From contig JAUQYZ020000150.1 in the NCBI GenBank assembly GCA_030587475.2, positions 1-10,550 of the forward strand: a DNA stretch of 10,550 bases, written 5' to 3'. Source of the DNA: Candidatus Sigynarchaeum calidifontis. Lineage in GTDB: Archaea > Asgardarchaeota > Lokiarchaeia > Sigyniarchaeales > Sigyniarchaeaceae. The notes under the pieces are model-generated. The model was not told the origin of the DNA, did not search any database, and saw only the letters and a program-made list of their open reading frames with translations. Positions 6,669 to 10,294 of this stretch are shown here, in pieces. A program made the translations under genes and the position numbers. Positions within the stretch are counted from its first letter, which is position 1, and each line of letters begins with the position of its first letter.

Positions 6669-7298
6669 TTGGTAAAAAAAGTCTGTTTCATCGGCCCCCC
6701 CGCTGCGGGCAAGACCACGCTGCGCCGGTTCTTCTTCGAGGGGATACCTGCAGACCTGCTCATGAAGCGGCAAGAACCGCCCTCGATAGGCTTGAAGCAC
6801 GACGTGTTCGATTATATCTTCATGTACCCGCCGGAAACGAAGAAACCCTCCCCCGCGAAGGTGCCGTTCAAGCTTGCCCTCGTCGACACGTCGGGCCAGG
6901 AGATGGAGAAATGGGTCACGACCCAGCGCAAGGAGGTTTTTTCCGGGACAGATCTGGTTTTTTTCATCTTCGACGTGAGCGAGTGGGCAGACCCTGTCCG
7001 CCGGCAATTCATCTGCGACTATATCTGGTTCGTGTTGCGGACCAGGAACGAGCTCGCGCCTTCCGCACTGTTTTATATCCTCGCGCACAAGTACGACAAG
7101 ATTGCCGGCAAGCGGAGCGACATGAACAAAACACGTCGAGATGTTTCCGAGGGTATCAAGGATTATTTGTTCAAGAAAAAGGAACTGGTTGTTTCCCTTC
7201 ACGTTTCTGTAACGAGCTTGCATAAAAATTACCGCAACCACACGTTTTCGACATTGCTCGACCTCATGACCGATTCGATGCAAGACCTCCTGGAATGA
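6669..7298 (+). CDS. Stand-alone Rag/Gtr-like small GTPase (no C-terminal roadblock domain)
   Basis: G1 GPPAAGKT, G2 PPSIG, G3 DTSGQ, G4 HKYD, G5 TSL. The HKxD G4 and TS[IL] G5, together with the segment F-x3-D-x-V-F-F-I-F-D-V-S, are characteristic of the Rag/Gtr1 family rather than Rab (NKxD/SAK). TTG start. Confidence 0.8.
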   Translation: MVKKVCFIGPPAAGKTTLRRFFFEGIPADLLMKRQEPPSIGLKHDVFDYIFMYPPETKKPSPAKVPFKLALVDTSGQEMEKWVTTQRKEVFSGTDLVFFIFDVSEWADPVRRQFICDYIWFVLRTRNELAPSALFYILAHKYDKIAGKRSDMNKTRRDVSEGIKDYLFKKKELVVSLHVSVTSLHKNYRNHTFSTLLDLMTDSMQDLLE

Positions 7299-7340: not shown

Positions 7341-8417
7341 ATGATTGCACGGACAGACATCATCGCCGGCATCGTGTTCTCGAAATACGACGAGATCGCA
7401 GGCCCCGACGCGTTTTACTGGGTGCCCGGCGAGTTGACGAGGGAAACGCTCTCGATCGTCAGCAACCGGTCGCTCAACATGCTCTCGGGAGACGAGCGGT
7501 CGATCCCGAAGGAACTGGAGATCGTCACGTTCCCGTCCATCGAGTTGAAGGGGATGATCAAGTTCTTGCAGATCAGCGACAGCTCGAAGCGCGGCGGGTT
7601 CGTGAACGCTTCGATCACGCTGCTTTTCAACGACAAGGACGCGTCGATTTTTTACAAATATCGTGCCGAGTTTAACCAGCCTTTCGAGGAATTCAGCCGC
7701 GTGATCATGGATCTCGAGCAGCGAAAAGCCAATGCACGTGAATACATTGAAAAATTCACCAAGTTCAACGCGCGTGTTAACGAGATCATCAAGGACTTGT
7801 TCGAAAAAGAAGTGGGCCTGAAGGACAAGGTCGAATTTCCCGAGGCCGACGAGGGTGTCATCAAGTATAGAATATACAAGTTCAAGGTGATCGTCGTCGG
7901 GGACCCGGAGGTTGGCAAGACATCCTTGATCTTGCGATATACCGACAACGCGTTCCGCCGCACGTACATCACGACCATCGGCGTCAATGTGACCGCCAAG
8001 AACCTCACGTACAGCGATCGCAAGGTCAAGTTCGCGATCTGGGACATCGCTGGCCAAACCAAGTTCCAGAAAACCCGCCGCCACTTTTACGAGGGCGCGC
8101 AAGGGGTCATCATCGTGTTCGACCTCACGCGGCCGGACACCTTCGAGAACATCGGGAAATGGTATGACGATGTCAAGCAATCCGTTAAAAATGAGCTACC
8201 CGGCATCATCCTTGGCAACAAGGCCGACCTCGCAAACGACATCATGGTGTCCAGCGAGAAAATCGAGAAGATAGCCCAGAAATTGCGGCTCGGGTACATC
8301 GAAACGTCCGCGCTGGACGGCAAGAACGTCAACGAGGCATTCTTGTATCTCGCGGCCATGCTCGTGAACAAGGGGAAGGAAGAGACCGAGAACATCGATG
8401 AACCAGAAGAAACGTGA
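7341..8417 (+). CDS. Fusion of an N-terminal uDENN/longin-like domain (NPRL2/FLCN/SMCR8/C9orf72 type) and a C-terminal Rab-like small GTPase
   Basis: N-terminus IAGIVFSKYDEIAGPDAFYWVP matches the hydrophobic-x-[FYW]-D-x3-G-P opening of uDENN longins, and a D-S-S-K-R-G loop follows. A helical linker leads to the GTPase at about 7878-8370: G1 GDPEVGKT, G2 TTIG, G3 WDIAGQ, G4 NKAD, G5 ETSAL, with RabF-like IGVNV, KFAIW, FYEGA and IVFDLT. SD-like GAGGA at 7330-7334. Confidence 0.9.
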   Translation: MIARTDIIAGIVFSKYDEIAGPDAFYWVPGELTRETLSIVSNRSLNMLSGDERSIPKELEIVTFPSIELKGMIKFLQISDSSKRGGFVNASITLLFNDKDASIFYKYRAEFNQPFEEFSRVIMDLEQRKANAREYIEKFTKFNARVNEIIKDLFEKEVGLKDKVEFPEADEGVIKYRIYKFKVIVVGDPEVGKTSLILRYTDNAFRRTYITTIGVNVTAKNLTYSDRKVKFAIWDIAGQTKFQKTRRHFYEGAQGVIIVFDLTRPDTFENIGKWYDDVKQSVKNELPGIILGNKADLANDIMVSSEKIEKIAQKLRLGYIETSALDGKNVNEAFLYLAAMLVNKGKEETENIDEPEET

Positions 8418-8496: not shown

Positions 8497-9861
8497 TCAA
8501 ACGTGCTTCTCGCCCAGCTTCTTTTCGACGACTTGGACGAGTTCGTGAAGCCAATACGCGTTTGATGGTTTACAGCCCTCGGGTGGCTCGACGATTTTAC
8601 GCATGTGAATGGGGATCCCATCCATCCGGTAACATGATGATTCGGCTTCGATGCCATCGTGCGTGCCAGGGATGATCAAGTTGGCCAGCTCGGTGGTGGG
8701 GGTCGGGTGGACGTCGCACGCGATGAGCGGGATCTCGGCCATGCGCTCGACCGATCTTTGGGGCATGTGTGCGCCCGGATCGGCGGCGATGTTGAGCATG
8801 GCGTCGACTTCCTTGCGCCTGAGCATGTCGACACCAGTGAACTCGCCGATGTTGTACCGGGGGAAGCCACGGGCAAAGTTGACACCATACGGGTAGCCGG
8901 TCATCCATGACAAGACCTGATTGAGCCCCGTGACATTGTAGTGGCCGCGCAAGGGCATGATTTGAAATTTCGTGATGTTACAGAGATCTTGCGTGAGCCC
9001 GATGGCCGCGGCGACGCTATTCTTCTTGGATGCGCTGTGCGTGAGGCCGAGCCCGAAAAAAATGGCGCCGTACGACGCCGCCTTCATGTCCTCGGCGAGC
9101 TGCCGCCAGACCGCGATGGGAACGCCGCCCACCTTCTCCTTCGTGATCTGGGCGCCCTTGATGATGGCGCGCAGGGTCTGGAAGGCCTCGTAATCGGCGC
9201 CCATCTCGATCTGGATGTGGACATCGGCCAATTTCGCTGTGTCCGTGTGCCGGGGGTCGACCACAACGAGCTTGCGCTCCTGGCGGCCATGACGCCTGAA
9301 ATAGCCAGAAACGTACGTGGAATAGCGGGACATGTGGCGCGCGTGCGCATTCATCGGGTTACAGCCCCAATACACGATGAGATCTGCCCGATTCTTCACC
9401 TCGCCAAGCGTCGCCCCCGCATACCCGACTTCTTGAATTGCTTGCACGCTAGGGCCATGGCAGTGCGTCACTTGGCCATCGATCGTCCCACCGACGAGCT
9501 CCGTCAACCGCACGCCTTCACGAATCGCTTCGACGCTGGTCTCGCTCCAGCCGAAGAGCAGCGGGTGTTTTGCCTTGATCAGGATATCCGCCGCTTTATC
9601 CAGGGCCTCGTCCCATGAAATCGGCTTGAACGCCTCTTTCTTGCTCGCCCGCCAGAGCGGCGTCGTGAATCGCTCGGCGCCCCTGCATGGCAAGAAATTG
9701 GCAGTGCCGACTTTACAAGCATTATACACGGTAACGATCTCGTTGTTGACGACCTCGCAAGCGATATCATCGCAGGCACAGCCATCAAATACACAAGTGC
9801 AGTCGGTGACGAGCTTCTTGCCGTCCTTTTCCGTGATCTTCGCGTTTTCCGTGATGAACAT
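8497..9861 (-). CDS. fwdB: Formylmethanofuran dehydrogenase subunit B (W/Mo-bis-MGD catalytic subunit)
   Basis: N-terminal CVFDGCACDDI...NAC Fe-S motif, metal-ligand motif CHGPS (Cys codon TGC at 9460-9462), ATLGEVKNRADLIVYWGCNPMNAHARHMSRYS, VVVDPRHTDTAKLAD, FFGLGLTHS, PLRGHYNVTG, TGYPYGVNF, ADPGAHMP, YRMDGIPI. W versus Mo (fwd/fmd) cannot be told from the sequence. Confidence 0.95.
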   Translation of the reverse strand: MFITENAKITEKDGKKLVTDCTCVFDGCACDDIACEVVNNEIVTVYNACKVGTANFLPCRGAERFTTPLWRASKKEAFKPISWDEALDKAADILIKAKHPLLFGWSETSVEAIREGVRLTELVGGTIDGQVTHCHGPSVQAIQEVGYAGATLGEVKNRADLIVYWGCNPMNAHARHMSRYSTYVSGYFRRHGRQERKLVVVDPRHTDTAKLADVHIQIEMGADYEAFQTLRAIIKGAQITKEKVGGVPIAVWRQLAEDMKAASYGAIFFGLGLTHSASKKNSVAAAIGLTQDLCNITKFQIMPLRGHYNVTGLNQVLSWMTGYPYGVNFARGFPRYNIGEFTGVDMLRRKEVDAMLNIAADPGAHMPQRSVERMAEIPLIACDVHPTPTTELANLIIPGTHDGIEAESSCYRMDGIPIHMRKIVEPPEGCKPSNAYWLHELVQVVEKKLGEKHV

Positions 9862-9883: not shown

Positions 9884-10294
9884 TTATTGCTTGAGCGGGT
9901 CGATGTACCTCTCTCGCATCAGGTCCGCCATTTGCAAGGGGGTTTTCTCGGGCACGGGCTCGACCTCGACGACCGTGTCCTTGTACTGCGGGCAGCCCGA
10001 GCATTTCGTCTCAGGGCCGATGATGATGTTCGTCCATGGGCCCCTCGGCATGAACCCGATACCTGGATGGGGTCCATCCGGCGTCAATTGCGAGCTAACG
10101 ACCACCTTGCCGTATTCATTCCGGACCTCGACCGCGGTGCCGGGGAACGTTCCCATCTTCTTGAAATCGGCCATGTCGAGATAGATGACAGCCGCCACGT
10201 TGCGGTAATCGGGCAGTTTCTTTCCTCCGCCCTTGATAATGACACCTTGCGGTACTGTCGCCCCGGAAGTAACGTGGATCTTGATCGCTGGCAT
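9884..10294 (-). CDS. fwdD: Formylmethanofuran dehydrogenase subunit D (molybdopterin dinucleotide-binding)
   Basis: SGATVPQG...Y..AAVIYLD..D.KKMG...G..VEVRNEYGKVVV...PHPGIGFMPRGPWTN...P.YKDTVVEVEP matches the FwdD pattern. It ends 22 nt upstream of the fwdB start. Confidence 0.9.
   Translation of the reverse strand: MPAIKIHVTSGATVPQGVIIKGGGKKLPDYRNVAAVIYLDMADFKKMGTFPGTAVEVRNEYGKVVVSSQLTPDGPHPGIGFMPRGPWTNIIIGPETKCSGCPQYKDTVVEVEPVPEKTPLQMADLMRERYIDPLKQ

Follow-up and report, generated by a model that had tools for sequence, protein, structure and literature searches.

The window (the whole 10,550-nucleotide stretch of DNA analysed, positions 1 to 10,550 of contig JAUQYZ020000150.1, here C118) comes from Candidatus Sigynarchaeum calidifontis, whose genome measures 4.99 Mb at 54% GC. 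Three co-directional genes stand in a row on its forward strand: one for a large surface protein, one for a Rag-like G domain protein and, beginning 42 nt after the Rag-like ORF stops, one for a longin domain fused to a Rab-like GTPase (Table 1). The cytoplasmic tail of the surface protein is of a simple longin type, and ~15 more ORFs in the genome share that tail. A CCG-domain gene (935-2038, +) lies 5' of this module, and minus-strand genes for a molybdopterin oxidoreductase (8497-9861) and a dinucleotide-binding protein (9884-10294), which we take to be FwdB/FwdD-like, converge on it from the other side. Both flanks are retained in the related loci L051-L054. The closest named homologues are those of Ca. 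Sigynarchaeum springense (82% across the longin and 89% in its Rag-like neighbour), where the pair carries the consecutive accessions MDO8083984.1 and MDO8083985.1, followed by other Lokiarchaeia. The surface-protein gene is found at the module in L053/L054, a linkage limited to close relatives, and was rejected as a fixed part of the module, being missing in L051/L052, L055, L062 and L063; in L051/L052 its place is taken by two proteins of 360-382 aa with a related tail and by a lone Rab-like gene. A promoter and terminator scan of the window, by a method ill-suited to archaea, gave signal at chance level.

Table 1. Positions of the genes, domains and motifs of the module within the window
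Feature	Position	Strand	Details
Single-pass surface protein, 1477 aa	2149-6582	+	37 N-x-S/T sequons; a single hydrophobic helix around residues 1234-1252
Roadblock-less Rag-like G domain, 209 aa, candidate client	6669-7298	+	PF04670 E 3.6e-9
Longin-Rab fusion ORF	7341-8417	+	358 aa; longin fused to intact Rab-like (RasL) GTPase
GP-motif/arginine-finger longin domain	7341-7814	+	Residues 1-158; five strands, helix 1, two C-terminal helices; AlphaFold2 pLDDT 93
Beta1-beta2 loop Y16-D-E-I-A-G21-P22 with GP motif	7386-7406	+	Conservation; predicted-complex contacts
D80-x3-R84-G85 loop, beta4-beta5, candidate arginine finger	7578-7595	+	R84 codon 7590-7592
Linker, residues 159-176, conserved F166-P167	7815-7868	+	Low pLDDT block 161-170
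Rab-like (RasL) G domain	7869-8417	+	PF00071 E 4.5e-50, residues 182-339

A preliminary description of this DNA had singled out a D80-x3-R84-G85 motif between two beta strands of the longin, downstream of an FSKYDEIAGP opener, and had read it as an arginine finger of the folliculin (FLCN) type. The codons agree with this placement (GAC at 7578-7580 for D80, CGC for R84, then GGC GGG for G85 and G86), and the opener occupies residues 13-22. An AlphaFold2 model of the longin, built on an alignment of 83 sequences (pTM 0.88), has strands at residues 8-17, 21-28, 60-64, 69-79 and 87-97, with R84 in the hairpin loop between the last two (beta4-beta5) and G21-P22 at the beginning of beta2. The best solved match to this fold is a Lokiarchaeota longin (8YQG, Z 18.9), followed by chains of Lst4, FLCN, FNIP2, C9orf72, NPRL2/3 and SMCR8 (Z 10.9-13.1), while the longins of DENND1, TRAPP, SNAREs and adaptins rank lower (Z no higher than 10.2). 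Matches in the structure atlas point the same way, with a Heimdallarchaeota Folliculin-type cluster at TM 0.76, Avl9 at TM 0.66, and C9orf72, NPR2 and SMCR8 clusters; single-sequence searches of the longin against the PDB and Pfam returned only noise (DcrB, E 0.013). The model thus supports assignment of the N-terminal domain to the FLCN/SMCR8/NPRL2 class of longins, as the preliminary description had proposed. The fold scores of Lst4, which is non-catalytic (Z 13.1), and FLCN (Z 13.0, 6NZD_H) are equal; fold cannot separate catalytic from non-catalytic subunits, and the arginine can.

The bare D-x3-R-G pattern occurs in the genome's long six-frame ORFs about 0.06 times per 165 residues and about 0.004 times per 10-residue loop. 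It is therefore expected in ~6% of domains of this size, and it is its conservation that counts. A profile search of 1.84 billion representatives yielded 147 relatives of the longin, and conservation was scored over 163 homologues sharing <70% identity, after P0133 (PAS repeats) had been removed as a false positive. R84, whose retention in homologues was at issue, is present in 86% of the 163, as is G85, with D80 at 76%, G21 at 90% and P22 at 87%, while positions 79, 81-83 and 87-89 are conserved in no more than 33%. R84 and the GP pair rank with the best-conserved positions. The conservation of D-x3-R-G is not due to chance.

The same longin is joined to Rab-like, Rag-type, roadblock, DENN-type, TIR-bearing and helix-turn-helix partners. 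The last two are seen in P0016 and P0113, a longin-Rab-TIR protein of 525 aa and a longin with a TrmB-type helix-turn-helix (518 aa), both with the arginine. Fusions to a Rag-type G domain plus roadblock have it in 23/23 cases; spacing from the arginine to the P-loop is constant in that class at 80-85 residues, and the Sigynarchaeum genome holds one such fusion of its own (C209:67005-68492). Among 98 non-redundant longin-Rab fusions the arginine is found in 79 and absent from 19 (~19%). Genomes carry two to six longin-Rab copies, this one six, five of them with the arginine. A tree of the fusions implies at least three independent losses of the arginine, the GTPase domains staying intact. Loss is unlinked to loss of the catalytic glutamine of the Rab domain (69/5/17/2, Fisher p 0.63) or of its switch-I proline (57/19/16/3, p 0.55), so that an obligate pairing in cis is unsupported and the preliminary suggestion that the longin acts on its own Rab domain finds no backing here. 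Two loci (L065:1480-3728 and L067:3717-6215) each contain two longin-Rab genes in tandem, of which only one has the arginine, recalling pairs of the FLCN-FNIP kind. By analogy, the copies that lack it resemble the arginine-less partner subunits of eukaryotic complexes.

Human FLCN, in its PDB sequence, does contain the motif named in the preliminary description, as D160-S-L-A-R164-G-F within residues 146-176. A profile of Folliculin-scoring Asgard proteins joined with the window longin aligns this region ungapped with the D-x3-R-G of the family at E 0.78, a value usable for register only. The comparison is partly circular: a profile of the longin family alone matched 8YQG and missed FLCN, which appeared only once the Folliculin-scoring Asgard proteins had been added. 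The GP region aligns ungapped with SMCR8 residues 58-80 (E 0.24), which include the SMCR8 GP motif, G68-P69 (PMC12290439). The longin-Rab protein of the window gave no match to Pfam PF11704 Folliculin (cut-off 23.3 bits); matches were found in 20/83 homologues, some of them over the cut-off (P0028 at 26 bits), and matches over the cut-off occur in 24/151 genomes of the phylum and 0/14 controls. In 22/23 examined matches, the arginine of R-G falls at Folliculin profile position 60-62. The profile register thus supports R84 as the equivalent of FLCN R164. SMCR8 R147 (DLEARGF) and NPRL2 R78 are presumably equivalents too.

The fused Rab-like domain has intact motifs (GDPEVGKT, YITTIG, WDIAGQ, NKAD, ETSA) and no C-terminal cysteine. 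Asgard Rab-like proteins of this kind have been classed as RasL rather than true Rabs (Vargova et al.). Foldseek searches with the full-length model (pTM 0.76, with switch I at low confidence) returned Rab chains only, headed by Rab1, Rab8 and Rab10, which is uninformative on domain orientation. Spacing from E157 to the P-loop has a median of 30 residues (range 20-38). The switch-I proline (window 7965-7982 and orthologues) is missing in 8/8 fusions linked to a Rag-like gene and kept in 24/26 others in the tree. Its absence counts as one evolutionary event, possibly marking a Rab domain that is drifting from the longin pocket.

The Rag-like protein carries the motifs GPPAAGKT, PPSIG, DTSGQ, HKYD and TSL, scores 36.8 bits against PF04670 (cut-off 22) and has human RagA as its best PDB match (E 2e-4). 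Its Q77 is invariant in 17 homologues. The catalytic glutamine is kept across Rag-like proteins, and no conserved arginine of their own was found in the P-loop or switch I. The C-terminal roadblock domain that would serve dimer formation is absent, full-length homologues spanning 202-214 aa. A gene of this type lies immediately 5' of a longin-Rab gene in 4/4 genomes of the family, two of which have the arrangement twice, and in a further lineage 3.2 kb 5' of one; of the 12 Rag-like copies in the family, five lie apart from the longin-Rab genes. The Rag-adjacent fusions form a single supported clade (95/89), so the linkage counts as one old event, and the pairing has been held across deep branches and through duplication. 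In the larger sister family, fusions occur in 25/25 genomes searched, with no Rag-like gene beside them in the loci read. One duplicate pair, found on the organism's own contig C198 (L055:3854-5609) and as an orthologue in G152 (L057:3119-4899), has a longin without the arginine and a Rab switch-I threonine changed to serine, next to an intact Rag-like neighbour. At another locus (L062:2468-4992) two tandem Rag-like genes precede one longin-Rab gene, the outer one with a divergent switch I.

Structure prediction with two longin copies, the Rag-like G domain and GTP/Mg gave a complex score of 0.76, against 0.02 for the best control, the controls being unrelated proteins and not other GTPases. 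The score mark is reached by 58/80 solved complexes and 2/110 mismatched pairs, and close cousins of a true partner often pass it as well (10/12 colicin pairs). A pass may also echo the solved FLCN-RagC, NPRL2-RagA or SMCR8-ARF1 complexes. Runs agreed in at least 92% of contacts, with partner pLDDT of at least 87. In the predicted complex, R84 of one longin copy touches three residues of the Rag-like protein, A12 (the Ras G13 position, in the P-loop) and the switch-I prolines P37 and P38. Its catalytic glutamine Q77, at the Ras Q61 position, is met by Y16 and G21, and I40 is lodged among Y16, P22, L45, L48 and N89. A further part of the interface, residues 18-23 and 38-50, comes from the second copy. 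This predicted layout resembles the two-longin cup described over the GTPase in C9orf72:SMCR8:ARF1. It supports binding of the Rag-like neighbour and favours GAP action on it in trans, although the fused Rab domain, with its similar switch-I motif, could dock in the same way.

We suggest that the longin is of the GAP type and that the Rag-like G domain encoded beside it, engaged in trans, is its likeliest client. This is our best explanation, held at somewhat less than even confidence. That the longin is an arginine-finger GAP, whichever GTPase it serves, appears highly probable given the predicted geometry. Of the trans-acting GAP put forward in the preliminary description, the finger position of R84 is borne out by the predicted complex, while client choice and GAP activity, like the role of the Rab domain, are what we infer. 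In such a mechanism two longins, either two copies or one plus a paralogue, would make a cup in which the GP loop and helix 1 would grip both switch regions (I and II) of a small GTPase in its GTP state and keep its catalytic glutamine in place. R84 would enter between the P-loop and switch I and, like FLCN R164 and SMCR8 R147, neutralise the transition state. The fused Rab-like domain would then act as another switch, either carrying the GAP or gating it, and the two GTPases would form a relay.

R84 could instead be a true finger whose client is the fused Rab domain, either in cis or, more plausibly, across a longin dimer (a homodimer or a paralogue pair), with the Rab belonging to the partner protomer. 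The Rab fusion is the widespread arrangement, whereas a Rag neighbour occurs in a single clade only; Rab switch I and that of the Rag-like protein share the docking motif P/T-T-[IL]-G, the pTM of the full-length model suggests a defined domain packing, and the relative 8YQG is dimeric. However, the arginine is lost independently of the Rab glutamine and switch-I proline, and switch I is of low confidence in that same model. Strict cis action would moreover demand an almost fully extended 18-residue linker, as judged from topology, because R84 and the terminus of the final helix lie at opposite ends of the sheet. We regard a Rab client as unlikely.

A second alternative is that the longin is a binding platform or adaptor for the GTP state, effector- or GEF-like. 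R84-G85 would then owe its retention to binding or to the hairpin turn, and hydrolysis would not be accelerated. The repeated arginine losses beside intact GTPase domains are what such a role would allow, as is the arginine-less copy on C198 with its retained Rag-like neighbour; 8YQG has the GP motif and no R-G, and eukaryotic longins are mostly GEF or adaptor subunits. Against this, 86% of the homologues, with Rab, Rag, roadblock and DENN-type fusions among them, retain the surface arginine, and distant Asgard families have it at an unchanged profile position, the pattern expected of a catalytic residue. The arginine-less copies fit the non-catalytic subunits FNIP, C9orf72 and NPRL3 of the eukaryotic longin GAPs (PMC12290439). 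A platform without catalysis seems rather unlikely. Finally, the longin might be a broad-specificity GAP that serves a number of the small GTPases abundant in this genome, in which case its gene neighbours would be a poor guide to its client. Such a GAP would suit the variety of fusion partners, the Rag-like genes that stand apart and the eukaryotic relatives acting on Arf, Arl, Rag and weakly Rab, but the Rag-like/longin-Rab pair has persisted across deep branches and through a duplication. We regard this reading as improbable.

Returning to the Rag-like protein as client, we consider it conceivable, if doubtful, that the operon is a working prokaryotic pair of longin GAP and Rag-like GTPase arranged as a relay. 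A GAP of the folliculin type, carried by a Rab-like switch, would inactivate the roadblock-less Rag-like GTPase; the relay might lie under a membrane receptor, and paralogues with and without the arginine would pair in the manner of FLCN and FNIP. If R84 proves to drive GTP hydrolysis by the Rag-like protein, that would date the arginine-finger chemistry of FLCN, GATOR1 and C9orf72-SMCR8, which figure in nutrient signalling, Birt-Hogg-Dube and ALS/FTD, to before the origin of eukaryotes. To our knowledge, no GAP has yet been matched to any Asgard small GTPase. The gene layout makes GAP-GTPase matching hard in these archaea (Tran et al. 2024, PMC10933270), and the client of the Asgard finger longins was left open when they were described (PMC12290439). 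Two small soluble proteins, from adjacent genes and with a predicted catalytic geometry, make this question testable.

The motif of R84 is real, conserved and rightly read as an FLCN-type finger, and the class to which it belongs is already known. Longins with a GP motif and an arginine finger, and with a possible GAP role on ArfR or Rag/Gtr, have been reported from Asgard archaea (Traffic 2025, PMC12290439, section 2.6), so that the novelty implied in the preliminary description was overstated. Both motifs have the same structural arrangement there as here; the proteins shown in that report number ~15, are mainly heimdallarchaeial and are assigned no client, and its text does not deal with GTPase fusions or Lokiarchaeia. 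Fusions of longin-GTPase and longin-GTPase-roadblock type were described in Promethearchaeum syntrophicum MK-D1 by Tran et al. (2024, PMC10933270), who leave the longin finger unmentioned. MK-D1 is in culture, and its protein WP_147663355.1 (P0182) has the same longin, with R96, on a Rag-type G domain plus roadblock instead of a Rab-type domain. FLCN-like and NPRL2-like longins with many fusions were noted by Liu et al. (bioRxiv 10.1101/2020.10.19.343400). Our literature search found no paper that connects the finger with longin-Rab fusions or identifies its client, and none describing 8YQG or the LokiRag structures. What we add is the Rab-fusion class, a GAP-type longin on a Rab-like switch beside a roadblock-less Rag-like protein, and a named candidate client.

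Among solved structures, the longin domain of the Lokiarchaeota Roadblock-Longin protein (8YQG; rmsd 2.1 over 145 residues, sequence E 3.6e-12) is the nearest relative of the window longin, dimeric and with the GP motif, and unlike it has neither an R-G finger nor a GTPase fusion. The released PDB entries 8YQG, 8YL2 and 9M28 comprise this longin dimer and two Rag-like GTPases, so that work on such regulators may already be under way elsewhere. In the monomeric 'DENN GAPs' Avl9 and DENND6, the catalytic arginine sits between beta4 and beta5 of the longin, as here, a finger position that the preprint generalises (bioRxiv 10.64898/2026.01.05.697756). Avl9, however, grips the switches with its cDENN domain, and the 358-aa chain of the window has no DENN domain: the DENN/NPRL-type domain that follows the longin in eukaryotic longin GAPs is absent, and the C-terminal half is a Ras-family G domain. 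C9orf72-SMCR8-WDR41 (an ARF GAP, with R147; 7MGE) and the NPRL2-NPRL3 pair of GATOR1 (a RagA/B GAP) match the fold at Z 10.9-11.6, and the GP motif is in register with G68-P69 of SMCR8. Both consist of separate DENN-type subunits that pair as heterodimers on lysosomes, in contrast to the fusion encoded here. Human FLCN, which with FNIP2 forms a RagC/D GAP (6NZD, 6ULG, 8DHB), matches the longin fold at Z 12.8-13.0 (rmsd 2.7-3.9 over 136-151 residues), with D160/R164 of FLCN in register with the D-x3-R-G of the window longin. Compared with FLCN, the window protein has a fused Rab-like GTPase in place of a DENN domain and no fixed FNIP-type partner, and its candidate client differs from the Rags that FLCN targets in the missing roadblock domain.
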